Origin: an uncultured Bacteroidales bacterium
Lineage (GTDB): Bacteria; Bacteroidota; Bacteroidia; Bacteroidales; Bacteroidaceae
Length of the DNA: 64,000 bases
Direction of reading: 5' to 3'
Assembly (NCBI GenBank): GCA_902779845.1
Contig: CACZCZ010000018.1
Coordinates: forward strand, 14,747 to 78,746
In this document: positions 21,529-33,150 of the stretch, one piece after another
Layout: every line of letters begins with the position of its first letter
Position numbering within the stretch: position 1 is the first letter of the stretch
Made by a program: the position numbers and the translations under genes
The notes under the pieces: model-generated
Databases searched by the model: none
What the model saw: only the letters and a program-made list of their open reading frames with translations
What the model was told of the DNA's origin: nothing

Positions 21529-23520
21529 ATGTCCATCGACACCGACCTACGCATCCTCGAGCTCCTCTCACAGAGCTTCCCCAATATCGCCGCCGCCTCC
21601 TCAGAGATCATCAACCTTGAGGCCATCTTGAACCTGCCCAAAGGCACCGAGCACTTCATGGCCGACATCCACGGCGAGTACGAGGCCTTCCTTCACATCC
21701 TCAAGAATGCCTCCGGCAACATCAAGCGCAAAGTGAAGGAGCTCTATGCCGACACCCTCTCGCCAGAGGAGATACGCGAACTCTGCACACTCATCTACTA
21801 CCCCGAGCAGAAGCTGGAGATCATCAAGAACCAGCTCGAGGCAGCCCAGTCCGACACCACCCTCGCCGCCTTCTACTCCATCACCCTCCAGCGCCTCATC
21901 CGCGTCTGCCAGTCGGTGTCATCCAAATATACGCGCTCCAAAGTCCGCAAGGCCCTGCCCGCCGAGTTCGCCTACATCATCGAGGAGCTCTTGCACGAAT
22001 CGCCCTCCGACGACGACAAGCAGGCCTACTTCGCCCGCATCATTGAGGCCATCGTGCAAACCGGCCGCGCCGACGCTTTCATCATCGCCTTGGCCACCGT
22101 CATCCAGCAGCTGGCCGTCGATCAGCTCCACATCCTCGGCGACATCTTCGACCGCGGCCCTGGCGCTCACATCATCATGGACCGCCTCTGCCAGCACCAC
22201 AGCTTCGACATCCAATGGGGCAACCACGACGCGCTGTGGATGGGTGCCGCTGCCGGCAACGACTGCTGCATCGCCAACGTCCTGCGTCTCTCGCTGCGCT
22301 ACGGCAACATGCAAACCCTCGAGGACGGCTACGGCATCAACCTCGTACCCCTGGCCACCTTCGCCATGGAGACCTACGCCAGCGATCCCTGCGACCTCTT
22401 CGGCCCGCGTCTCGACAAGGACGACACCACACACAACGAGAAGACACGCCGCCTCATCGCGCAGATGCATAAGGCCATCTCTATCATCCAGTTCAAGCTC
22501 GAAGCCCAGATGATCCTGCGCCGTCCCGAATGGCAGATGCAGGACCGCCTCGTGCTGCAGTATATCGACAAGGAACGCGGCCTCTTCGTGAAGGACGGCG
22601 TCACTTATGAGATGACCGACACCTTCCTGCCCACCCTCGACCCCGCACACCCTTATGACCTCACCCCCGAGGAGGCCGAGCTGGTGCGCCAGCTCCACCA
22701 CTCCTTCCGCGTCAGCGACAAACTGCAGAAGCACATCAAGTGCCTCTTCACCCACGGCTGCATGTACGCCATCTACAACGGCAACCTCCTCTTCCACGCC
22801 AGCGTACCCCTCAATGCCGACGGCACTCTCAAGGAAGTCGATCTCAACGGCCAGCGCTACAGCGGCCGCGAGCTGCTGCATCAGATTGGCATGACCATGC
22901 GCTCCGCCTTCAACGCCGACACGCCCCGTGCCGAGAAGCAGTTTGCCAAGGATTACTTCTGGTATCTGTGGTGCGGGCAGGACTCACCGCTCTTCGACAA
23001 AGACCGCATGGCCACCTTCGAACGTTACTTCCTGCGCGACAAGTCAACGCACGAAGAACGCAAGGGTTACTACTACCTCCTTCGCGACAACGCCGAAGTC
23101 TGCGACCGCATCCTCGATGCCTTCGGTGTCGAGGGCAAGCACCGCCATATCATCAACGGCCATGTCCCCGTACGCGTGGCAGGCGGCGAGAGTCCCATCA
23201 AGGCCGACGGTCGCCTCATGGTCATCGACGGCGGCCTCTCCAAAGCCTACCACAACACCACCGGCATCGCCGGCTACACCCTCGTCTTCCACAGCCGCGG
23301 CTTCGAGCTCATCCAGCACGAACCCTTCGAGAGTGCTGACGACGCCATCCGCCGAGGCACCGACATCGTCTCCAGCAAGCAGATTGTCGAGCTCAGCGGT
23401 CGCCGCCTGCGTGTCCGCGACACCGACAAAGGGCGCGAACTCCTCTCCCAGATTACGGAACTCCAGCACCTCCTCTACGCCTACCGCCACGGCATCCTCA
23501 AGGAGCGCACCCGCCAGTAA
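21529..23520 (+). CDS. fbp: Fructose-1,6-bisphosphatase class 3
   Basis: 663 aa, with the MADIHGEYEAF metallophosphoesterase motif and FBPase class 3 length. Confidence 0.95.
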   Translation: MSIDTDLRILELLSQSFPNIAAASSEIINLEAILNLPKGTEHFMADIHGEYEAFLHILKNASGNIKRKVKELYADTLSPEEIRELCTLIYYPEQKLEIIKNQLEAAQSDTTLAAFYSITLQRLIRVCQSVSSKYTRSKVRKALPAEFAYIIEELLHESPSDDDKQAYFARIIEAIVQTGRADAFIIALATVIQQLAVDQLHILGDIFDRGPGAHIIMDRLCQHHSFDIQWGNHDALWMGAAAGNDCCIANVLRLSLRYGNMQTLEDGYGINLVPLATFAMETYASDPCDLFGPRLDKDDTTHNEKTRRLIAQMHKAISIIQFKLEAQMILRRPEWQMQDRLVLQYIDKERGLFVKDGVTYEMTDTFLPTLDPAHPYDLTPEEAELVRQLHHSFRVSDKLQKHIKCLFTHGCMYAIYNGNLLFHASVPLNADGTLKEVDLNGQRYSGRELLHQIGMTMRSAFNADTPRAEKQFAKDYFWYLWCGQDSPLFDKDRMATFERYFLRDKSTHEERKGYYYLLRDNAEVCDRILDAFGVEGKHRHIINGHVPVRVAGGESPIKADGRLMVIDGGLSKAYHNTTGIAGYTLVFHSRGFELIQHEPFESADDAIRRGTDIVSSKQIVELSGRRLRVRDTDKGRELLSQITELQHLLYAYRHGILKERTRQ

Positions 23521-23608
23521 CTCAGGCAAGAGACAATCGTCTTCGCCACCGTTCCAACGATGCTTTCCATGAACTTATGAATGAAGGTTCATGCGATGCC
23601 CCCTTCTA

Positions 23609-24208
23609 TCAATCATAGATAATGTGCGGATTCCTTTCCGCCGGTGTCTTCCAGTCTATGTTGAAGCCATATCGCAAGATATCCTTCTTCAGCCCCCATA
23701 TACTATGGCAAATGCCTATCATCCAGTTCTCGGGTATGAAGACCATGTCCATGAAGGAATCTATGCTTTTTTCAAGGCTGGGTGAAAGGAATGGGCTCAA
23801 TCTGTCATCCTTTCCCTCCTCCCGATGTGCATTCCACAAGTCATAAGCCCGCATGATTTGCCTACCTAAGATCTCCTCTTTCTCAGGATAGTCAATCTCG
23901 ATTCTCGTCCGCGGGTCTATCAGCATGGCGAGCCTCTTCAAGAGCGAACCGATTCGTTCCACCTCTTTCTGGAAAGGCTGTACCTTCTTCTTTTCAGACC
24001 ACATTGACCTTGGGTCAGCCAGCGGCAACACGATGTCCGGCTCCGTTCCAATCCAATACACCGATGCCTCGCAGTTACCCACAACGCTACACATCAGCCC
24101 TAGCCGCCTCATCTCAGGATCAAAGAAGCCGCTCAGGTCCTTTATCCTAATGAACGCGCTGATGCCCAGCTCCTTCATCTTTGCTTCTGTTAGTACGATG
24201 TGTTCCAT
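23609..24208 (-). CDS. Hypothetical protein (199 aa), orphan
   Basis: Clean ORF in the island. Its promoter (24321-24355) has the same palindrome-plus-box architecture as the WYL and DUF1566-like genes. No motif recognised. Confidence 0.6.
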   Translation of the reverse strand: MEHIVLTEAKMKELGISAFIRIKDLSGFFDPEMRRLGLMCSVVGNCEASVYWIGTEPDIVLPLADPRSMWSEKKKVQPFQKEVERIGSLLKRLAMLIDPRTRIEIDYPEKEEILGRQIMRAYDLWNAHREEGKDDRLSPFLSPSLEKSIDSFMDMVFIPENWMIGICHSIWGLKKDILRYGFNIDWKTPAERNPHIIYD

Positions 24209-24320
24209 ATACTTGCAATGTGCTGATAATGCTCCTCTTGCATGAGCTAATCATAATTGTTTGTCAGACAAATATACCTTTACATCAGTATAACGAAATA
24301 GTATATATCGTTTTTCAATG

Positions 24321-24355
24321 CAAAGGTATAATATAGTAGCGAACACTATGTTCGC
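24321..24355 (-). promoter_or_regulatory. Promoter with operator palindrome (GCGAACA-cta-TGTTCGC, 10-nt gap, TACCTTTG)
   Basis: The minus strand reads GCGAACATAGTGTTCGC-tactatatta-TACCTTTG. The architecture is identical at 28065-28099 and 29145-29179. Confidence 0.6.
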
Positions 24356-24375
24356 ATAACAAAAAAAGAATGTAG

Positions 24376-24921
24376 TTATAGCTGCAATGGTTCCGTGAGA
24401 TCACCTATAGGATGATAATTAAAACCCAAATAACGATTATACCACTCTTCTGGTTTCCAGCCATCTAAAGATACCCTCTCTCCCGTTTCATTATCCACGA
24501 TTATCGGAGTAAAAACTTTAATCGAATTGTATATTCTTACATTACCAGTTGCTGTTCTCTCCACTCTTCCAACGTCATAAAGCGAACATATGTTATATTT
24601 TGCATCATCTTTTGTATAGATGCGAAATAAAGGGCCATGTTTACTGGGCACATCAACAATTTCTCCATCTATAGGTTTTAGTAATTCAGAGAAAGGAAAC
24701 GGAGACTTTTCATCTTGTCCAAGTTCATGATTGTGAACGACCTCTATGAGATCTGTAAAACCACTACGATTCTTCTTCCCAAATAATGGTAACACAAGTA
24801 GTACTTGTTGCGGATTATTAACACTAGCCACACATACCTTTAGATATCTGTCTAACTGTTCTTCGAAGGATTTCTTTTTGAATGGTACAGTCTCCCAGTT
24901 TGTTAATAAATACTTAGCCAT
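24376..24921 (-). CDS. Hypothetical protein (181 aa), third gene of the retron operon
   Basis: The ATG lies 7 nt after the stop of the 275-aa gene, with the same strand and AT-rich composition. No motif recognised. Confidence 0.7.
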   Translation of the reverse strand: MAKYLLTNWETVPFKKKSFEEQLDRYLKVCVASVNNPQQVLLVLPLFGKKNRSGFTDLIEVVHNHELGQDEKSPFPFSELLKPIDGEIVDVPSKHGPLFRIYTKDDAKYNICSLYDVGRVERTATGNVRIYNSIKVFTPIIVDNETGERVSLDGWKPEEWYNRYLGFNYHPIGDLTEPLQL

Positions 24922-24928
24922 ATTATTT

Positions 24929-25756
24929 TTAAATTTTAGACAATAATTCTGTATTTATTGTGTTCGCCATATCCTTAATTGCATCTACCACTTCTCCGAA
25001 TGGTTCTCTACGACGCCAAATTTGACGACGATATTTCCAATATGCAGATTTATCAAGGTTGTTAAATCGCAAAAGTAAGTCATTATTGTCTTTGATACCA
25101 TTCCAATATACTTCCCCTTCCTTGGTTAACGGAAGTTTCATAGCTAATAGTTTTGCCTTAAAGTCTTCTAAGTTCTTTGTTTCATCCAAACTTCTATGGC
25201 TTTGTTCGTTTCTTACTTCTCGCGCAAAATCCAAAACCTCAATTTGTCTTTTATTCATCTTACCTGAAAATGCAGACAATTTGGCTGCCAATGAAAGACC
25301 TTTTATAGAATCTATTTTCTCTATATTTGTCCATTTTGCATTATCGTTAATATATCTGATGACGTCTTCAATAGATTCAAACCTGTTCATGTAGAAATAA
25401 TTAAGCAAATGCTCTACTTGAAGCATTGCATACCTACAAAACTCTGAAAAGTCAATTTTATGGGACCGAACTCCCATCCGATACCTTAGCATTTCTCGAT
25501 AATCAGAAACTAGTTGCTCTCTGACATAATCTTCTTTAATAAAAGAATAGTCAATATCTGGAGTTGCACTATCTAATTTATAGTCCAGCCCCAGATATTT
25601 CTCGATGTCAGCGATTTTACGATTACTTGAAGAGTCATAGGTCGGCACATCTAACAACTCTCGTAGTCCTTTTACAAAATCGTCATTGCCAGGTTCATCA
25701 ATGAGGCGCTTGATGAACTGCAGGAGCTTAATTAATTGTTCTTTATTTTGTGCCAT
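24929..25756 (-). CDS. HEPN-like protein (Rx4H motif RNEQSH), putative retron effector
   Basis: The ATG lies 1 nt after the RT stop. FAREVRNEQSHRS (R182-H187, nt 25196-25213) fits the R[NHD]xxxH HEPN RNase motif. The protein looks predominantly helical. Confidence 0.6.
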   Translation of the reverse strand: MAQNKEQLIKLLQFIKRLIDEPGNDDFVKGLRELLDVPTYDSSSNRKIADIEKYLGLDYKLDSATPDIDYSFIKEDYVREQLVSDYREMLRYRMGVRSHKIDFSEFCRYAMLQVEHLLNYFYMNRFESIEDVIRYINDNAKWTNIEKIDSIKGLSLAAKLSAFSGKMNKRQIEVLDFAREVRNEQSHRSLDETKNLEDFKAKLLAMKLPLTKEGEVYWNGIKDNNDLLLRFNNLDKSAYWKYRRQIWRRREPFGEVVDAIKDMANTINTELLSKI

Positions 25757-25757
25757 A

Positions 25758-27179
25758 TTATAAATAGCTCAAATCAAAATTTGTTTCACAAAGTTTAGCA
25801 AGTATTTCATCCAGCGTCATCGAGGAATGTTTTTTCTTCTTTACATCGACGTCTTTACCAAATGGTCTATGAACGAAATAGAATCTCTCTTTCTGTTGAT
25901 TCTCGCAAAGAGATATTACCAGGTTTGTAAACTCCAATTTTTCAGAATTCTTGCTGATTGTTGCAACTTGTTTCTCACCATCTATCAAGAAGGAAGCGTA
26001 CTTTTTTCCGTTCTTCGATAGTTTCATTTCTACTTTTGTTCCAATTCTTTTCTCAAAATCGGTAATTCTCTGAGTGTCCAAGTACTTGATGGCTGTCTCG
26101 GAATTGCCATATAAAGGAACATCCATAAGTACATTGTATAGCTTCCTCAACTTTACATATGTGGAGTCATCCTCACCCTTGACCATTTTAAGATAATCCA
26201 ACTTTCCTGCTATCACGTTTTCCAAATGCGGAGCCCCCTTTTTAATGTGTCCTTTTTCCAGTTGGTAATGAACAATGAAACGCTGATAGGCTGTTGTCAA
26301 ACCATACTTTTGCCATATATAGAGTATATTTCTTATGTCTTCCACATATTTTCGCGTTACATTTACTTTGTCGCTAACAATCAGTCCCGTGACCTCTTGC
26401 CTGCTCCCTTTTTTCTGTAAACGTGTTTTTACTTCATTGACCTGGAAACCTTGCTCTTGAATGATTTTGAACAGGGTCTTCATGAAACGCGAGTCCTTCT
26501 GATAGACATTGTGCATACTGCTAAATGTAATATCATCTGCATAACGAGAATATATTAATCCATAATGTGAAGCCAATTTTGCAAGTTTATAGTCAAGCTT
26601 ATCGCATATTGCATTTGTGAGTAACGGCGAGGTTGGTGCTCCTTGTGGAAGAATATATTTCTCCGAATCTTCATTCACGAGTTTCATGCAGCACAATCCA
26701 GCAATTACACTGGCGAGTTCTGGATTGAAGTTGAAAGGAGGTACTTTCAGTCGTCCCCACACTCTCGCTTGAGGAATGCTTGGGAAGAAATCTTTAAGAT
26801 CCATGTTAAACACATAGTTCTGTGCAATATGCATTTGTGCATTATCAACGACGGACCGGTTCTGAGCAAAACCCATTGCCCACCGAGATGGTTCATAGAT
26901 GGCCTGAAATATGATGTTCAGATATGTCTGAATAGATTTCAAACCATTTACGGGAGCTGATATATGCCTTGCCCCACCGGACTTTTTTGCAATGAAGAAA
27001 TCGTGATATCGTTTGGAATTGGGAATAGAGAAGGGATTACAATAAAAGTTTATCTGCTTCATAGTAAACGGAAAGCCTCTATCGCCCAACTCGTCAGCCT
27101 TAATATCGTTTAGTAAGGCCAACAAATCAGTTTTATCTTTCATGTGCTCAACACGGAGCTTTATCTTTTCTCTATCCAT
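25758..27179 (-). CDS. Retron-type reverse transcriptase with a ~125-aa C-terminal extension
   Basis: FFIAKKSGGARHISAP; NAQMH (26829-26843); MDLKDFFPSI; LPQGAPTSPLLTNAICDKLD; YADD (26532-26543); RQEVTGLIV (VTG at 26385-26393). Collinear with the Ec86 RT as I remember it. Confidence 0.9.
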   Translation of the reverse strand: MDREKIKLRVEHMKDKTDLLALLNDIKADELGDRGFPFTMKQINFYCNPFSIPNSKRYHDFFIAKKSGGARHISAPVNGLKSIQTYLNIIFQAIYEPSRWAMGFAQNRSVVDNAQMHIAQNYVFNMDLKDFFPSIPQARVWGRLKVPPFNFNPELASVIAGLCCMKLVNEDSEKYILPQGAPTSPLLTNAICDKLDYKLAKLASHYGLIYSRYADDITFSSMHNVYQKDSRFMKTLFKIIQEQGFQVNEVKTRLQKKGSRQEVTGLIVSDKVNVTRKYVEDIRNILYIWQKYGLTTAYQRFIVHYQLEKGHIKKGAPHLENVIAGKLDYLKMVKGEDDSTYVKLRKLYNVLMDVPLYGNSETAIKYLDTQRITDFEKRIGTKVEMKLSKNGKKYASFLIDGEKQVATISKNSEKLEFTNLVISLCENQQKERFYFVHRPFGKDVDVKKKKHSSMTLDEILAKLCETNFDLSYL

Positions 27180-27198
27180 ATAAAAATGAGAGTCTTCA

Positions 27199-27384
27199 AC
27201 AGAACTGCTTTTCTTTGTATATCATAGCACATAACATACTGTTTGTATTTAAATTTGTAAGCCTCGAAGGAAAGCAGAAGTATGCTTTGCACGTCAAGCA
27301 CATATAACAATCTAACATTGTTACCTCAAGCATATGCAAGAGGAATCTACTGAATACGGTAGACAATTTCAAAATCAGTTCTGT
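27199..27384 (-). ncRNA. Candidate retron msr-msd non-coding RNA
   Basis: 14-nt inverted repeat: ACAGAACTGaTTTT (rc of 27371-27384) pairs with AAAAgCAGTTCTGT (rc of 27199-27212), 13 of 14 positions. The 3' arm ends 19 nt before the RT ATG. A G follows the 5' arm directly (27370). Internal hairpins are present, for example TAACAAT-guuag-ATTGTTA and AAAGCA-uacuuc-TGCTTT. Confidence 0.45.
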
Positions 27385-27434
27385 ATCAGACTCTCAAAGA
27401 TCGCTGTTTAACTTTGATTTGGAATGAGGATATA

Positions 27435-28040
27435 TCACCTCGTTTTAACAAGGCGTATAGGTATTGAGAAACCTGAAAAAACAAGAGTAATATCAATGGC
27501 CGTTATACGCAGTGCGCCCTCACCTACACGTCCCATATGTACCGCCTTTTTCTCATTTCCATCCTCCTTATTATTTATCCAGAAATATAAATGCCCAGCT
27601 CCATACATATTTTTATGCACTAGTCTACCAGCTTTTTTGAAACCTGTACTATGGAAATTAATACTATTGCCATTGGGACCTATGAATGTAACACTATACA
27701 AGTCTCCGTATGTGTTTTTTTCCACATGCCTCTCACAAGTCTCAAATAATTCTTTCCACTGTTCTTCTGTTGGAAGATTATAATTTTCTGCTGTCTCATA
27801 TGGCAAGAAGATAACTTTTTTATCTTCCATTTCATAATCAGCCGACCACAACGTTCCACTTGGCAAACCTAGGTCAACATATTCAGTCTTGTTGTCACGA
27901 AGATCGATTGGAATCTCTTCCTCTCGGTCTTTGTAACCATCACGATACCCTTCTTCATACGCTTTTGCGAGCGCATTTGCTATCACTTCGTTTGATTTCT
28001 CTGCTGCATATTGAGCAGCCTTCTCTGTCAGCTCTATCAT
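27435..28040 (-). CDS. DUF1566 / FISUMP-like domain protein, no signal peptide
   Basis: YVDLGLPSGTLWS, LPTEEQWKELF and GPNGNSINF...G..YFW segments match the Bacteroides DUF1566-type family as I recall it. The N-terminus is a helical region rich in A, E and K. Confidence 0.6.
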   Translation of the reverse strand: MIELTEKAAQYAAEKSNEVIANALAKAYEEGYRDGYKDREEEIPIDLRDNKTEYVDLGLPSGTLWSADYEMEDKKVIFLPYETAENYNLPTEEQWKELFETCERHVEKNTYGDLYSVTFIGPNGNSINFHSTGFKKAGRLVHKNMYGAGHLYFWINNKEDGNEKKAVHMGRVGEGALRITAIDITLVFSGFSIPIRLVKTR

Positions 28041-28064
28041 AGTTGCTATTATTTTTTAACACTG

Positions 28065-28099
28065 CAAAGATATATCCCGTTAGCGAACTCTATGTTCGT
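28065..28099 (-). promoter_or_regulatory. Promoter with operator palindrome (ACGAAC-N5-GTTCGC, 10-nt gap, TATCTTTG)
   Basis: The minus strand reads ACGAACATAGAGTTCGC-taacgggata-TATCTTTG, 25 nt upstream of the ATG at 28040. It overlaps the 3' end of the WYL gene. Confidence 0.6.
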
Positions 28100-29127
28100 A
28101 AACTACCATATTTTTCATTCATAGCAGAAATATGCTTTTCTATTTCGTTCTTGACATCGCCGTCGGACTGTAAGACGATGAGGTCTGCACCGAAAGAGGT
28201 TAGTTCACGGATGAGTTCAAAGTTGTTGATACAGTCCAGCGTGAAGAAGAGGCCGCCTTGGAGTTGGGGATATTCAGCACGCAGTTGCAGATCTTTCTCT
28301 CCTTTGAGGGGAGTGTAGCTGCCATGAATCGGCTTTGTATCGACATAACCTTTCGATGCATCACTCACCCAGCATAGGATATGTTCAACTGGACGATCCT
28401 CGTAGAGTGTAACACCTACGATGTCTTCAAAGCGGTCTGCAAGGTCTTCCGGACATTTCTCATAGTGCTTCTCTGGAAATGGATCCACTGCATTGATTCT
28501 GTCGAGAGCGAAGTGAAGGATCTTCTTGTCGCTGTCAGCAGCACCGAGCAGATACCAACGGTCGTTGTACTGCTTTAACAGGTAGGGATGGAAGTCTATG
28601 CTACGAATAGTCTCATCTGAGAAGGTATGGTAGGACAGCCTGATGACCACCTTATTAGATATATAGTCGAAGAGTGTTCCCAGGAGGTTGGAGTTCTTCA
28701 GGTAGGGATTGTTACTGAAACTTATAATCTGACGGTGGCTCCGCACTTCTGCATCTGCCTTCAGACGGTCCAACCAAGCAAAATGATCCAGACCGTTGAA
28801 CTGACCAATAGTGTTCAGAACTTCATGCAAGAGCAATCTCTCTTCACGACGCATCTCCTGCTTAAAAATAGAGAATGAGTGCTTGTCATACGCAATGCAG
28901 TTCTTGCCATTCTTCACGAATCGAGCAATGGGTGCATTGAAGGGCGCATCTTCAAGCGCATTAATATCTTTCTCTATGCAGCGTTGTCCAACCTCAAGGA
29001 ATCCATCAAACCGCAATCTCTCATTCACGCCATCTGTCAAGTCGTGAATGTCATAATAGTGATAGCGGTCGGACAGCAGTCTATCCAGATGCTTATATCG
29101 AATGAGAGCGTTCTTGTTCGTTGGCAT
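28090..29127 (-). CDS. WYL-domain transcriptional regulator (HTH-WYL-WCX type)
   Basis: N-terminal HTH (ALIRYKHLDRLL...RCIEKDINAL) and WYL motif NDRWYLLG. ATG at 29127 is preferred because the TACCTTTG box at 29145-29152 lies inside the longer ORF. Confidence 0.8.
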   Translation of the reverse strand: MPTNKNALIRYKHLDRLLSDRYHYYDIHDLTDGVNERLRFDGFLEVGQRCIEKDINALEDAPFNAPIARFVKNGKNCIAYDKHSFSIFKQEMRREERLLLHEVLNTIGQFNGLDHFAWLDRLKADAEVRSHRQIISFSNNPYLKNSNLLGTLFDYISNKVVIRLSYHTFSDETIRSIDFHPYLLKQYNDRWYLLGAADSDKKILHFALDRINAVDPFPEKHYEKCPEDLADRFEDIVGVTLYEDRPVEHILCWVSDASKGYVDTKPIHGSYTPLKGEKDLQLRAEYPQLQGGLFFTLDCINNFELIRELTSFGADLIVLQSDGDVKNEIEKHISAMNEKYGSLRT

Positions 29128-29144
29128 AATTTCTGTTTTTGCTG

Positions 29145-29179
29145 CAAAGGTAATTATTGGTTGCGAACGCAATGTTCGC
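29145..29179 (-). promoter_or_regulatory. Promoter with operator palindrome (GCGAAC-N5-GTTCGC, 10-nt gap, TACCTTTG), likely autoregulatory
   Basis: The minus strand reads GCGAACATTGCGTTCGC-aaccaataat-TACCTTTG, 18 nt upstream of the WYL ATG. Confidence 0.6.
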
Positions 29180-29335
29180 ACACCTCAAAAATCCTTTAGA
29201 CAAGTTTTCTGGCCACAAAGATACAACTTATTTTGATTCACTGAGCAAAAAACCTCAAAAAAAAATTTTTCATAAGGCTTGTGAAGCAGAAAAGGAGCGA
29301 TGCCGCTCCTTTTCGTTTCGACTCTATGATGATTA

Positions 29336-29944
29336 TTATTTCTTTGTTCTATCAACAATTACCCAATGGCCACCAAAATCTGCGCCAGCACGACGAATCA
29401 GACTGTCGCGTTTAAGGGTCTCGATGCACCGCTGTATATAACTTGAAGCCTTTCCTGTTTCCTTTACCAACTCAGCTCTGGTTATTTTCGGATTCTTCTT
29501 TATGAGTTCATAAACTATATCTATGGTTGTCTGACCACCTGTCTGACCACCTGTCTGACCACCTGTCTGACCACCTATTTGACCACCTATTTGAGTACTA
29601 TTCACATTATTCCTCTTGAACGTTACTTTCACTCCGCCATAGGCCGACTCAATCTTGGGCATAGGCAATCCAGCACCCTCAAAGCCCTCACGAATTTTCT
29701 TATAGCCACGTCCCCAGGCATCAATGAATCCGGCTTTGAAAAAGGCATTGGCAATATTTCTGTTGCGGGGACGCGAGGCATGTTGTTGAAGCAACGTCTC
29801 TGGAGTAAAGCCAACGGGCAATTCGCCTTCGTTCCATATCTCACAATAGTCATCCCATACACGCATCTGGATGTGAGCTCCCGTGTAGTCTTTATGGATG
29901 ATAGCATTATATAGTATTTCACGCAAAGCCTCCTCAGGTTCCAT
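29336..29944 (-). CDS. Truncated paralogue of the upstream gene (HATPase_c_4-like domain + repeat linker + wHTH); possible gene remnant
   Basis: EALREILYNAIIHKDY starts the HATPase_c_4-like region, and no AlbA_2 N-terminus is present. Similarity seems to continue 5' of the ATG up to an in-frame stop. Contains the GGQIGGQTGGQTGGQTGGQT linker. Confidence 0.55.
   Translation of the reverse strand: MEPEEALREILYNAIIHKDYTGAHIQMRVWDDYCEIWNEGELPVGFTPETLLQQHASRPRNRNIANAFFKAGFIDAWGRGYKKIREGFEGAGLPMPKIESAYGGVKVTFKRNNVNSTQIGGQIGGQTGGQTGGQTGGQTTIDIVYELIKKNPKITRAELVKETGKASSYIQRCIETLKRDSLIRRAGADFGGHWVIVDRTKK
29529..29594. repeat. 12-nt in-frame tandem repeat (GTCTGACCACCT x4 plus 2 variants)
   Basis: Read directly. 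Encodes (GGQT/GGQI)n in the linker of the 202-aa ORF. Confidence 0.9.
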
Positions 29945-29980
29945 TCTGCGAGGAACCGATTATATAATGCTTTCGTCATT

Positions 29981-31600
29981 TCATGACTCTTTCTTTTTCT
30001 TCAAAACCATCCATTCGCCACCGAATGTGCCACCTATTCGCTCAATAACAAGGTTTTCTTTTAGTTCCTTCAGGTCACGCTTGATGGTCTTTTTATCAAC
30101 ATCGAGTTTTTCTGCCATTGTCTCTACGCTGACATGGGAATCAATAGAAATCATGCCAACGATGGCTTGTTGACGCCTTTTACGTTTACTGATAACGAGT
30201 TCTCTTTCAAACGGCTTTAACGAGAGTTCCTCGTCTGTCAGCTCATGGATGGAAGTTGGGGACATTTTGTCCTTGTTGGGGACATTATCGGGTTCTGTTG
30301 GGGACATTTGTCCTTCGTTGGGGACATTTTTACCTTCTGTTGGGGACATTTTCCCTGTCTCTGTGACATTTCCATAGACATTTTCGTCCTGATAGGTGAT
30401 AGAGAAGAGGAACTGGGAGCCACTGTTGATCTCGATTTTATAGTTTGGATAGTAGAGCGGTGCATAGCGTAGGATGTTGCGGGTACCGGAGCCCAAATCC
30501 TCTGCCCAGTTCAGTTCGTGGAACACACGCACTAATAGTGGATTCTTGGTGTAGTTGCTGAGTTGTTGGATGGTCAACTCTCCCTCGGGGATCTCAGGCA
30601 ACAAGCGCGTAGGATTCTTCGTCACAACACGGTCTTTGAACACGTGGAAGAAGCAGGCATAACCGCTACTGAAATCAGTATGAACACACATATTGCCAAC
30701 AATCTCTCGGAATAAGTCCCAACGCAGGTTCTGTCGCTGCATGGTGTTGGCTGGCAGATAGAACTTATCAGGCAGATAACGCTCTACAAAAGCTCCCAAT
30801 TGTTCATAGACCTGAATCAGGTTCTGACGAATGGTGCGACGGTCATCATAGCGGCTGGGGAACAGACTCATATCGTTGTATTGGGCGTATGTGCACATGT
30901 GGAATACGGCCTCGAAGCGGTAACGAGGCATAAACTCTGTGATGGCATCTTCTGTGCCAAAAAGTATCAGTGCCGCATATTTCAGTTGTAGCTTGCTTCC
31001 TTCCTGCTTGGCCAGATGTGCGCTGAGCAACATCTCTTCATTCGTCATCTGCAACCAGGCATGTGAGGGTTGTATTGTTGCCAAGATGTTGCGGCAATAC
31101 TGGAAAGTCTTAACATCCAGCTGTTCCATCGTCAGACCTTCCACGATTCGTTCCTCAAACAGATGTGGATTCTTTCTTTCGAAGATTGACAACAATAGTT
31201 CGGGCTGATCGGTCACATCGATGTCAGCATCATCGTTCCTGTCCCAATAGCGGCCTTTGAAGCGATAGACATACTGACCGCAGGGGATATCGAGTTGCAT
31301 TACAGTCTTGTCATCCATCTCCATGATACGAGGCGTGAAATAAGGGCAAGGAAGAAACAGTTCAGGATTGTTGATGCAGTTGATGATGTCAGCTTTCAAC
31401 TTCTCTGCCTTATCGGGATTCACACCAATAACAGTTCCGTCATTCTGCACTCCTACTAGGATCTGCCCTCCGGTATGGTTCAAGAAAGAACACACCGACT
31501 CATAGAGGGATTCCGAAATTTCCTCCGTACAGGTCTTGTATTCTATCTGAGTTCCTTCGCCCTCAAGTGTCAATGCTATAAATTTATCTATTACTTTCAT
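29981..31600 (-). CDS. AlbA_2 (Schlafen-like) + HATPase_c_4 + wHTH putative DNA-binding protein
   Basis: EGEGTQIEYKT...LNHTGGQILVGV AlbA_2-type N-terminus and a C-terminal KTIKRDLKELKENLVIERIG wHTH. Proteins of this family are often mis-annotated as RecG-like. Confidence 0.75.
   Translation of the reverse strand: MKVIDKFIALTLEGEGTQIEYKTCTEEISESLYESVCSFLNHTGGQILVGVQNDGTVIGVNPDKAEKLKADIINCINNPELFLPCPYFTPRIMEMDDKTVMQLDIPCGQYVYRFKGRYWDRNDDADIDVTDQPELLLSIFERKNPHLFEERIVEGLTMEQLDVKTFQYCRNILATIQPSHAWLQMTNEEMLLSAHLAKQEGSKLQLKYAALILFGTEDAITEFMPRYRFEAVFHMCTYAQYNDMSLFPSRYDDRRTIRQNLIQVYEQLGAFVERYLPDKFYLPANTMQRQNLRWDLFREIVGNMCVHTDFSSGYACFFHVFKDRVVTKNPTRLLPEIPEGELTIQQLSNYTKNPLLVRVFHELNWAEDLGSGTRNILRYAPLYYPNYKIEINSGSQFLFSITYQDENVYGNVTETGKMSPTEGKNVPNEGQMSPTEPDNVPNKDKMSPTSIHELTDEELSLKPFERELVISKRKRRQQAIVGMISIDSHVSVETMAEKLDVDKKTIKRDLKELKENLVIERIGGTFGGEWMVLKKKKES
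30255..30372. repeat. In-frame tandem repeat, GTTGGGGACATT core recurring every 20 or 22 nt (42-nt double unit)
   Basis: Cores at 30255, 30275, 30297, 30317 and 30339, plus a degenerate copy at 30363. Encodes KMSPTEGKNVPNEG / QMSPTEPDNVPNKD / KMSPTS. Confidence 0.9.
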
Positions 31601-32173: not shown

Positions 32174-33130
32174 TCAACGCGAGCCTTGAGAAAGTGAGGC
32201 GGCGAGGGTGGCGCTGATGTGGTTGCCAATCTGGCAGCAGACATCCTGACTCCAACGCTGCGCCATAGCGATGAGGGCGGATTGGGTGGCGCTGGATGAG
32301 GAGTGGGTGGCGCTGGAGGAGGATGATGCGGTGAGGGGTGCTGACTGCAGGGTGAGCTTCGCGTAGATGTAGCCGGCATTGAAGTTGTCGCCTGCGCCCA
32401 CGGTGCTGACGGTTTCCACGGGCTCCACGGGGAAGGTATAGCAGGCATCGGGGGTATAGACGCGGATGGGGCGTGCGCCGTCGGTGAGGATGAGTGTAGG
32501 ACAATGGCGACGCACACGCTCATAGACGGCATCGGCATCATGAAGACCGTAGAGGAACCCGAAATCTTCCATCGAGCCGCGCACGACATTGGCCAGGCTC
32601 ATGTTCTCCTCGATGTTGGCCATCACACGTGGCAGGTCGGCGATGTGGTTCTTGCGGAAGTTGACATCGTAGTAGAGCCATGCGCCAGCCTCGTGGGCGG
32701 CACGCAGCAAGGCACCTACGACGGGACGTATGGCGGGGTTGATGGCGAAGAAGGAACCGAAGAGCACTACGTCGTCCTTGCGGATTTCGGGCAGGGGGCC
32801 GTCGAGCGTCACGGAGGCGTGATCCTTATAGAAGATGTACTGCGCATCGTTGTTCTCGTCGAGGAAAGCCAACGAGATGTGCGACTTGATGTGCTCATGG
32901 CGGCATACGTAGTCCGTGGCTACGCCGTTGTCGCGCAGGAAGTTGCAGATGAGCTCGCCGATGTGGTCGCCGCCGACCTCCGTGAGCATCGCACACGGCA
33001 CGCCGGCGCGACCCAGCGAGATGATGCTGTTGAATGTTGAGCCGCCGGGTACGGCCTTCTGCGGCTGGTCGTCCTTGAAGAGGATGTCCATCACCGTCTC
33101 CCCGATTCCTATCACTCGTTGCATAGACAT
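32174..33130 (-). CDS. PfkB-family carbohydrate kinase (fructokinase-like)
   Basis: VIGIGETVMDILF...PGGSTFN N-terminus and a GAGDNFNAGYIY anion-hole motif. TATCTTTG box at 33143-33150 excludes the TTG start at 33145. Confidence 0.85.
   Translation of the reverse strand: MSMQRVIGIGETVMDILFKDDQPQKAVPGGSTFNSIISLGRAGVPCAMLTEVGGDHIGELICNFLRDNGVATDYVCRHEHIKSHISLAFLDENNDAQYIFYKDHASVTLDGPLPEIRKDDVVLFGSFFAINPAIRPVVGALLRAAHEAGAWLYYDVNFRKNHIADLPRVMANIEENMSLANVVRGSMEDFGFLYGLHDADAVYERVRRHCPTLILTDGARPIRVYTPDACYTFPVEPVETVSTVGAGDNFNAGYIYAKLTLQSAPLTASSSSSATHSSSSATQSALIAMAQRWSQDVCCQIGNHISATLAASLSQGSR
32284..32325. repeat. 21-nt tandem duplication inside the kinase gene
   Basis: GGGTGGCGCTGGAtgaggagt followed by GGGTGGCGCTGGAggaggatg. 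Encodes SSSSATH/SSSSATQ. Confidence 0.8.
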
Positions 33131-33142
33131 AGATTGTTTTTG

Positions 33143-33150
33143 CAAAGATA
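33143..33150 (-). promoter_or_regulatory. Bacteroidota -7 promoter box TATCTTTG (fructokinase)
   Basis: TAnnTTTG match 13 nt upstream of the ATG at 33130. Confidence 0.5.

Follow-up and report, generated by a model that had tools for sequence, protein, structure and literature searches.

A divergent, putative HEPN-type ribonuclease as the candidate effector of a type XI-like retron from an uncultured Bacteroidales bacterium

We have analysed a stretch of 64,000 nucleotides (nt) of DNA from an uncultured Bacteroidales bacterium (contig CACZCZ010000018.1; the whole stretch is called the window below), and in particular a gene at 24929..25756 (-) that specifies a protein of 275 amino acids (aa) and lies directly downstream of a gene for a retron-type reverse transcriptase (RT). 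Our reading of the evidence, to which we assign a probability of roughly 0.6, sees the 275-aa protein as a divergent ribonuclease (RNase) with the HEPN fold, nearest to the DUF4145/MtlR-like proteins and with an intact R-N-x3-H plus Glu site, and as the effector in a retron of three parts: a noncoding RNA (ncRNA), a type XI-like RT that lacks a fused effector domain, and the 275-aa protein itself. An HEPN-type reading of this protein had been put forward earlier from the sequence alone (the original prediction), with motif conservation among homologues, structure searches and Pfam profile searches named as checks. The motif is conserved, the weak profile matches are skewed toward HEPN families, HEPN proteins are the top-ranking structures, and the motif lies where it should in the predicted fold; these observations favour the HEPN-type reading, although the similarity scores are all sub-threshold.

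Conservation of the R-N-x3-H motif

Translation of the window bore out the 275-aa open reading frame and, within it, the proposed motif R182-N-E-Q-S-H187, at 25196..25213 (-), which is contained in the sequence FAREVRNEQSHRS that runs from residue 177 onward. We assign these residues as the predicted HEPN catalytic motif from their conservation and from their position in AlphaFold models. The protein contains 3 His residues in all. In 20,000 shuffles of its sequence, a match to R[NHD]xxxH arose in 3.6% of cases and a match to the looser Rx4-6H in 50%, so that the motif by itself is weak evidence, and conservation, fold and genetic context have to decide.

Among 44 homologues, R182, N183, S186 and H187 were invariant, as were D85, R87, E88, M89, R91, G95, R97, H99, F103, E105, C107, R108 and E115 in the first half of the protein. 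A broader set of 94 homologues, reaching 25% identity, left E115, R182 and H187 as the only invariant positions (each 94/94), which answers the check on motif conservation directly; N183 was present in 93 of the 94, the exception being D, and Q113 and N119 were present in 92 and 91, respectively. E115, whose codon is at 25412..25414 (-), lies in a predicted helix spanning residues 103-125 and is our candidate for the acidic residue of HEPN helix-2. It falls within EFCRYAMLQVEHLLNYFY (residues 105-122), a helix-forming segment that the original prediction had described as preceding the motif; the segment is indeed present, but about 60 residues upstream rather than directly before it. In the survey of HEPN domains by Anantharaman et al. 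(2013; PMC3710099), the Rx4-6H motif typically has N, D or H after the R, with N typical of catalytic domains; the motif is placed where core helix-3 ends and the loop leading to helix-4 begins, and a conserved acidic residue is found in helix-2, usually within E-x3-[KR]. The invariant R-[N/D]-x3-H of the family fits the catalytic HEPN signature described in that survey, and the invariant Glu of the preceding helix may be its acidic residue.

A weaker second candidate had been named as well, R93-MGVRS-H99 at 25460..25480 (-), which has the form Rx5H. These residues are present as described; they are situated in the loop that joins helix 76-94 to helix 103-125, and R93 and H99 were retained in 76 and 71 of the 94 homologues. 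We place them outside the core motif, where they may form an auxiliary basic patch. A tandem HEPN arrangement, in which R93..H99 would represent a first motif, was considered and rejected, in that comparison of the N-terminal with the C-terminal half gave an hhalign probability of 1% or less and R93/H99 is not conserved family-wide. Given the mutual dissimilarity of the halves, the protein appears to be built of a single HEPN core, within a helical region from about residue 72 to residue 275, and an N-terminal three-helix region (residues 1-65).

The family as a whole is sizeable. An exhaustive hidden Markov model search of 1.84 billion representatives yielded 483 clusters at 50% identity, of which 308 had E<=1e-10; at 90% identity, 199 clusters were obtained with E<=1e-3. 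The family carries no name in any source, and tblastn searches with the 275-aa protein against INPHARED phages and PLSDB plasmids gave no match. It has a conserved block of its own, D85-x-R-E-M...G95...F103-x-E-x-C107. One relative of 512 aa, P0240, consists of two tandem copies of the entire HEPN-like protein, of which the first has lost the R and the H and the second has RNYRAH. A duplication with one intact motif would be expected if the unit is normally dimeric, as is true of HEPN nucleases, which are metal-independent endoribonucleases, and we take this sequence as a hint of a dimer with a composite active site. The P0240 gene (L052:5001-6539; loci L052-L054) stands in the order WYL gene, gene for a 414-aa RT, P0240, PIF1/TBP-TOTE helicase gene, and gene for a DUF7017/S1CSD-TOTE protein.

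Linkage to a type XI-like RT and a candidate ncRNA

The RT gene, at 25758..27179 (-), specifies a protein of 473 aa, and 1 nt separates its stop codon from the ATG with which the 275-aa gene starts. The protein matched Pfam RVT_1 (2.4e-19) and has the retron hallmarks NAQMH at residues 113-117 (NAxxH), YADD at 213-216 and VTG at 263-265. Among PADLOC models it scored best with RT-Protease_XI (3.9e-103), followed by RT-TIR_XII (1.9e-100), RT-Toprim_I-C (2.1e-95) and RT_IX (9.1e-49); the NCBIfam models Retron_TIR_antiphage (2.5e-87) and retron_Ec67_fus (5e-76) were matched below their cut-offs. No protease, TIR or Toprim domain was detected in the RT, which ends in an extension of about 125 aa that gave no significant Pfam hit and whose alignment disclosed no catalytic signature, so that the 275-aa protein is the sole enzyme-like partner conserved with the RT. 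The extension (residues ~345-473; 25758-26150, -) contains a small conserved module with the pattern FEK...YA.F...IS.CR...FWLIHR, and in many loci the RT, which varies in length from about 380 to 556 aa, has a conserved tail of the form L..L..S-NFDLSIL(P). Possibly, this tail is a docking element for the partner protein.

Upstream of the RT gene we located a candidate retron ncRNA (msr/msd) at 27187..27396 (-), delimited by the inverted repeats a1 (27371-27396) and a2 (27187-27212). The arms are 26 nt long and 85% complementary, and they enclose an RNA of about 210 nt whose predicted fold, compared with those of shuffled sequences, gave z = -5.25; a search of Rfam found no match to it. Farther upstream, at 28090..29181 (-), is a gene for a 363-aa WYL-domain protein (Pfam WYL 3.3e-12, with a weak match to WCX; PADLOC WYL 3.8e-18), which is likely to be the transcriptional regulator of the operon.

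We compared this arrangement with that in 49 loci from GTDB, one genome per species and most of them metagenome-assembled genomes (MAGs) of Bacteroidales; the nearest was that of Prevotella sp. SIG144. An RT gene is directly upstream of the HEPN-like gene, on the same strand, in 48 of the 49, with RT identities down to about 45%, and the RT stop and the HEPN-like start are separated by a median of 2 nt, and by 20 nt or less in 36 of the 48. About 38 of the 49 have a WYL gene upstream on the same strand. In 39 of 45 loci the best inverted repeat upstream of the RT, equivalent to a1/a2, ends 5-60 nt ahead of the start codon, as it does in 8 of 45 shuffled and 4 of 45 RT-internal controls. The sequences of the arms vary among loci while their complementarity is kept. 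The RT-HEPN order is also kept in the distant members P0240 and P0263; a third, P0251, is at the start of a short contig, where the upstream gene is unreadable. Downstream of the HEPN-like gene we looked for a third gene conserved across the family and found none, the only recurrent one being a gene for a 181-aa protein in the close subclade.

These observations bear on the suggestion that the 275-aa gene is an independent abortive-infection (Abi) or toxin gene that merely adjoins the retron in a defence island. Such a view could appeal to the low-GC island in which the operon lies, which has other defence-like genes, and to L044, the sole locus with a family member but without an RT. We nonetheless find it scarcely credible, for order and strand are shared by 48 of the 49 loci at the short spacing just given and across widely diverged RTs, whereas beyond the 275-aa gene the gene content is freely variable. 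The order of genes at L044:331-6759 is WYL, a 412-aa protein of unknown type, a NERD-UvrD helicase, a BspA-type leucine-rich-repeat protein, and the HEPN-like gene. In 5 other species-level loci (L025, L032, L042, L045 and L046) the HEPN-like gene is followed downstream by a pair of genes for proteins of ~660-735 aa and ~500 aa; to judge from size and position, this is probably a TOTE helicase pair as in L052, and it could be either a neighbouring defence system or one with a functional link. Six loci (L014, L018, L022, L029, L033 and L047) come from MAGs labelled Lachnospiraceae, Dialister, Eubacterium, Agathobaculum, Azospirillum or Gammaproteobacteria, in a lineage otherwise of Bacteroidota; mis-binning or horizontal transfer could be responsible for these labels.

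The RT core is most similar to those of the canonical type XI, XII and I-C retrons, in which the RT is a fusion with a protease, TIR or Toprim domain. The trypsin-like protease found at the C-terminus of canonical type XI RTs was absent from the present RT by both Pfam search and extension alignment, and, compared with canonical type XI, XII and I-C systems, the effector function appears from sequence to have moved to the separate downstream gene. A recent computational study by Toro (bioRxiv 10.64898/2026.05.14.725207; May 2026) described a type XI-like lineage, TXI_C2like, that is restricted to Bacteroidota and has a protease-less RT whose C-terminal extension varies, a WYL gene that is mostly upstream, and an upstream ncRNA flanked by a1/a2 repeats. 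The locus studied here fits TXI_C2like, as matched by this description of its features, and the genome of one of our comparison loci, L015, is entered in a table of that preprint as type XI with a WYL neighbour. The frequency of WYL genes differs: the preprint counts them in 37% of loci, against the ~38 of 49 given above for loci that carry the 275-aa partner. In the same preprint (10.64898/2026.05.14.725207), the most abundant non-WYL partner cluster, AC006, was without a Pfam or structural match, and HEPN is mentioned 0 times. AC006 may be the 275-aa family. Our search of the literature found no paper in which HEPN or DUF4145 is linked with this retron lineage.

Predicted fold and its nearest relatives

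AlphaFold2, supplied with the family alignment, gave an all-helical model of the whole protein with a predicted local distance difference test (pLDDT) score of 86.9; for residues 72-275 modelled alone, pLDDT was 95.4 and the predicted template-modelling (TM) score was 0.89. The surroundings of the motif, which had been expected to be helical, are so in both models: a helix of residues 169-186 closes with R182-S186, H187 opens a loop (187-192), and another helix (193-205) follows. The helix with E115 (103-125) is separated from the motif helix by 2 short helices, 129-139 and 156-166. In the models, then, the motif is at the helix-3/loop position that PMC3710099 describes for HEPN domains.

We used Foldseek to compare both the whole-protein model and the core model (72-275) with the PDB, and HEPN proteins ranked at the top, none of them with E<1e-3. 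With the core model the best match was MtlR (6kcr_A; E 0.02, probability 1.00, TM 0.38/0.45), followed in probability by YggD (3c8g; 0.60) and HepS (9oij; 0.44, rising to 0.80 with the whole-protein model); the remaining matches among the top 50 had probabilities of 0.13 or less with the core model, one of them, at 0.13, being TT1696 (1ufb), a HEPN protein. A Foldseek search of viral predicted structures gave nothing significant.

Weak profile matches cluster on families of the HEPN clan, none of which reaches its curated cut-off. At E<=1, DUF4145 was matched by 24 of the 44 members, and the other recurrent Pfam families (2-3 members each) were the HEPN families Swt1, RiboL-PSP and Apea and the non-HEPN families DUF7026 and Noc2. 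At E<=0.1 among the 94 members, the matches were to DUF4145 (13), HEPN_Swt1 (8), pEK499_p136 (4), DUF3644 (3), Apea (3) and Abi_2 (1); DUF7026, with 4, was the sole recurrent non-HEPN family, and the rest were singletons. The best E-value for any member was 2.4e-4 (DUF4145 and HEPN_Swt1), these being whole-protein E-values, with bit scores set against cut-offs for the first member only. The specific likeness to Abi2/AbiD, which the original prediction had named among the HEPN RNases, is not supported: the 275-aa protein did not match PF07751, 1 of the 94 members did so (E 0.0053), and the nearest HEPN relatives are those of the DUF4145/MtlR-like group.

DUF4145 is the best of the weak Pfam families and MtlR and YggD are the best structural neighbours. 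Since PMC3710099 places DUF4145 and MtlR in one HEPN group, the hints from sequence and from structure agree on the same corner of the superfamily. To what this group has in common, the 275-aa family adds the N-terminal three-helix region, about 70 C-terminal residues and its own conserved block. HEPN families are hard to link by sequence (PMC3710099), and our assignment comes from a convergence of evidence and not from one significant match; on that footing we think it very probable that the protein has the HEPN fold.

Several observations weigh against the proposal of an HEPN-fold effector RNase. No Foldseek match to the PDB had E<1e-3 or TM>0.5, the best being that to MtlR (E 0.02, TM 0.38-0.45). 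No HEPN family in Pfam reached its curated cut-off, and for the 275-aa protein DUF4145 scored 15.3 bits where 23.1 are required. Searches of PDB sequences with the protein and with 2 family profiles gave nothing relevant, and no PADLOC model, that for type IX included, matched it. The hhalign comparison with the MtlR family gave a non-significant probability of 0.4, in a weak test given the very low diversity of the MtlR alignment (Neff 1.6). In its acidic motif the family has E-x3-N where E-x3-[KR] is usual; MtlR, the protein closest in structure, is a regulator from a family that is often non-catalytic according to PMC3710099; and L044, as mentioned, has a family member without an RT. Finally, the RNase activity, toxicity, msDNA (multicopy single-stranded DNA) synthesis and phage defence attributed to the locus are all predictions from sequence. 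NCBIfam and PHROGs provided nothing usable for the 275-aa protein. In favour of the proposal, the single local alignment from the non-significant hhalign comparison sets RNxxSH on R117-EELN-H122 of MtlR.

The low scores could be taken to mean that the protein is not a HEPN protein at all, but an unrelated helical protein in which R-N-x3-H has some other role, such as binding the phosphate backbone of msDNA. Every similarity score is below accepted thresholds, helical bundles yield spurious Foldseek matches, and AC006, which is possibly this family, had neither a Pfam domain nor a structural homologue in the preprint's searches (Pfam, and HHsearch against PDB70). Against this, independent lines agree, namely the position of the motif, the polar residue after the R, and the acidic residue in the previous helix; moreover, 6 HEPN families are among the recurrent weak Pfam matches, and MtlR, YggD and HepS are the Foldseek matches of highest probability. 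We judge a non-HEPN protein to be decidedly improbable.

Another view accepts a HEPN-like fold and denies it nuclease activity, making the protein a nucleic acid-binding or scaffolding subunit of the RT-msDNA complex, with toxicity derived, for instance, from a variable downstream gene or from the RT extension. This would accord with MtlR and YggD as the top structures, from a family that PMC3710099 regards as often non-catalytic, and with the close downstream genes in many loci, including the 181-aa gene that follows after 7 nt in the subclade. However, the persistence of the R, N, H and Glu down to 25% identity (N183 in 93 of 94) is what catalysis predicts, the downstream genes are not conserved family-wide, and the RT extension has no catalytic signature. 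A non-nuclease role accordingly seems unlikely to us, and we retain a HEPN-fold RNase as the preferred description of the 275-aa protein.

Comparison with known retron and HEPN systems

The type IX retrons (Retron-Kva2, Sen3 and Yin1), which consist of an ncRNA, an RT, a HEPN RNase and a winged-helix (WH)/KH-HTH protein, likewise have a stand-alone HEPN-type partner, and it is their mechanistic model that we adopt below. In those systems the HEPN site is covered by an assembly scaffolded on msDNA; when a phage nuclease cuts this msDNA, the HEPN protein is freed and cleaves tRNA and rRNA, which results in abortive infection. The 2 systems differ in other respects. The RT of the present locus is type XI-like (PADLOC 3.9e-103, against 9.1e-49 for RT_IX), whereas the type IX RT belongs to clade 7; the type IX HEPN and WH genes are upstream of the ncRNA, whereas here the HEPN-like gene is downstream of the RT gene and there is no WH/KH-HTH partner; and the type IX HEPN protein lacks the canonical His and uses H64/R122, whereas the motif here is a canonical R-N-x3-H. 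As judged from these sequence features, the locus is not a type IX system, and, with RT clade, HEPN family and architecture all different, its predicted HEPN effector would be one recruited separately from that of type IX.

HepS, the HEPN abortive-infection protein of the Gifsy-1 prophage (PDB 9oij), is a single-protein defence effector and is among the few probable structural matches to the 275-aa protein, although the 2 share only 16% sequence identity with a TM of ~0.3. HepS is not known to require an RT or msDNA.

The strict coupling of the 275-aa gene to an RT and an ncRNA also admits the thought that the protein is an active HEPN RNase which, rather than acting as a toxin, processes the retron's own transcript, so that msr/msd or the operon mRNA would mature; HEPN domains do act in RNA processing as well (PMC3710099). 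We hold this to be quite improbable. PMC7736814 lists, as retron partners, predicted nucleases, proteases, TIR domains and others of this kind, which were read as effectors. The HEPN protein of type IX is a toxin. Characterised retrons are not known to need a dedicated RNase beyond host RNase H. An effector role for the 275-aa protein thus remains the reading that we prefer.

Neighbouring genes and the surrounding island

The whole retron operon is contained in a low-GC island at about 23600-31600 (35-47% GC, as compared with 55-62% in the flanks), which is bordered by genes for a class-3 fructose-1,6-bisphosphatase (21529-23520) and a PfkB kinase (32174-33145). The island looks horizontally acquired. 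At 29336-31600 (-) it has 2 adjoining genes of SLFN_AlbA_2 / HATPase_c_4 / HTH type, of which the one for a 539-aa protein is complete; the 202-aa product of the neighbouring gene has a GGQ[IT]GGQTGGQTGGQTGGQT repeat and is without the AlbA_2 part.

The 181-aa gene, at 24376..24921 (-), follows the HEPN-like stop codon at a distance of 7 nt, and its product gave no domain hits. Its family comprises 30 clusters at 52-99% identity, which share their contigs with the close HEPN-like subclade. The order RT, 275-aa protein, 181-aa protein is kept in L057 and L058, and the gene is absent from more distant loci; it looks like a subclade-specific third gene of the retron. Between the WYL gene and the ncRNA, at 27435..28040 (-), is a gene for a 201-aa protein with weak FISUMP/Fib_succ_major matches alone. 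It occurs in only part of the lineage, with homologues in L001, L002, L005 and L011; L057 and L058 have, at the same position, genes for proteins of 199 and 187 aa that gave no Pfam hit and are likened to it by size and position.

A further 199-aa protein, specified at 23609-24208 (-) and of no assignable function, flanks the core system together with the 201-aa protein. In comparison with the SIG144 contig it is 94% identical, while the RT, the HEPN-like protein and the 181-aa protein are 99-100% identical. From the lower value we conclude that the DNA studied here is from a close relative of the SIG144 assembly and is not the same sequence.

A proposed mechanism and its implications

The original prediction had gone on to propose that the effector is held in check by the RT and msDNA. 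Operon coupling and the type IX precedent lead us to infer the same, and the system could operate as follows. The WYL protein would control transcription of the operon, and the RT would copy part of the a1/a2-closed ncRNA into msDNA, as its retron hallmarks suggest; in retrons generally, msDNA is branched on a priming G. By analogy with type IX, the RT-msDNA complex would bind the HEPN-like protein and keep its active site closed, in a contact that may involve the conserved C-terminal module or tail of the RT, or the N-terminal helical region of the effector. A phage factor that damaged or sequestered the msDNA would then free the HEPN-like protein, probably as a dimer, which would cut host RNA such as tRNA or rRNA and so stop growth before the phage cycle was completed.

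We also entertain, with slightly more doubt than belief, a wider view of the family. The ~480 clusters (at 50% identity), nearly always beside an RT in the loci examined, would be a family of HEPN RNases recruited independently of type IX, serving a type XI-like lineage found only in Bacteroidota as a stand-alone effector in place of the fused protease. The N-terminal region and the D-x-R-E-M...G...F-x-E-x-C block of the effector, with the C-terminal module and NFDLSIL tail of the RT, would constitute a new means of coupling the state of the msDNA to activation of a HEPN protein, tuned by lineage-specific additions of which the 181-aa gene is an example.

A HEPN effector is already known from type IX, and the specialist would not find a retron toxin of this type very surprising. 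The work also shows how partner proteins without a reported homologue can be placed when conservation of a motif, its location in a predicted structure and the distribution of sub-threshold matches are considered together. The type XI-like group is the most abundant group of retrons in Bacteroidota and is mostly host-associated (Toro, 10.64898/2026.05.14.725207). Its protease-less branch has been without an assigned effector, and the HEPN assignment would supply one, together with a testable mechanism; the RT, ncRNA and 275-aa protein would also offer a compact system from gut Bacteroidales in which to study the restraint of an RNase by msDNA. If the assignment is correct, 2 distant clades of retron RTs would each have acquired a HEPN toxin, and would have done so from different HEPN families.

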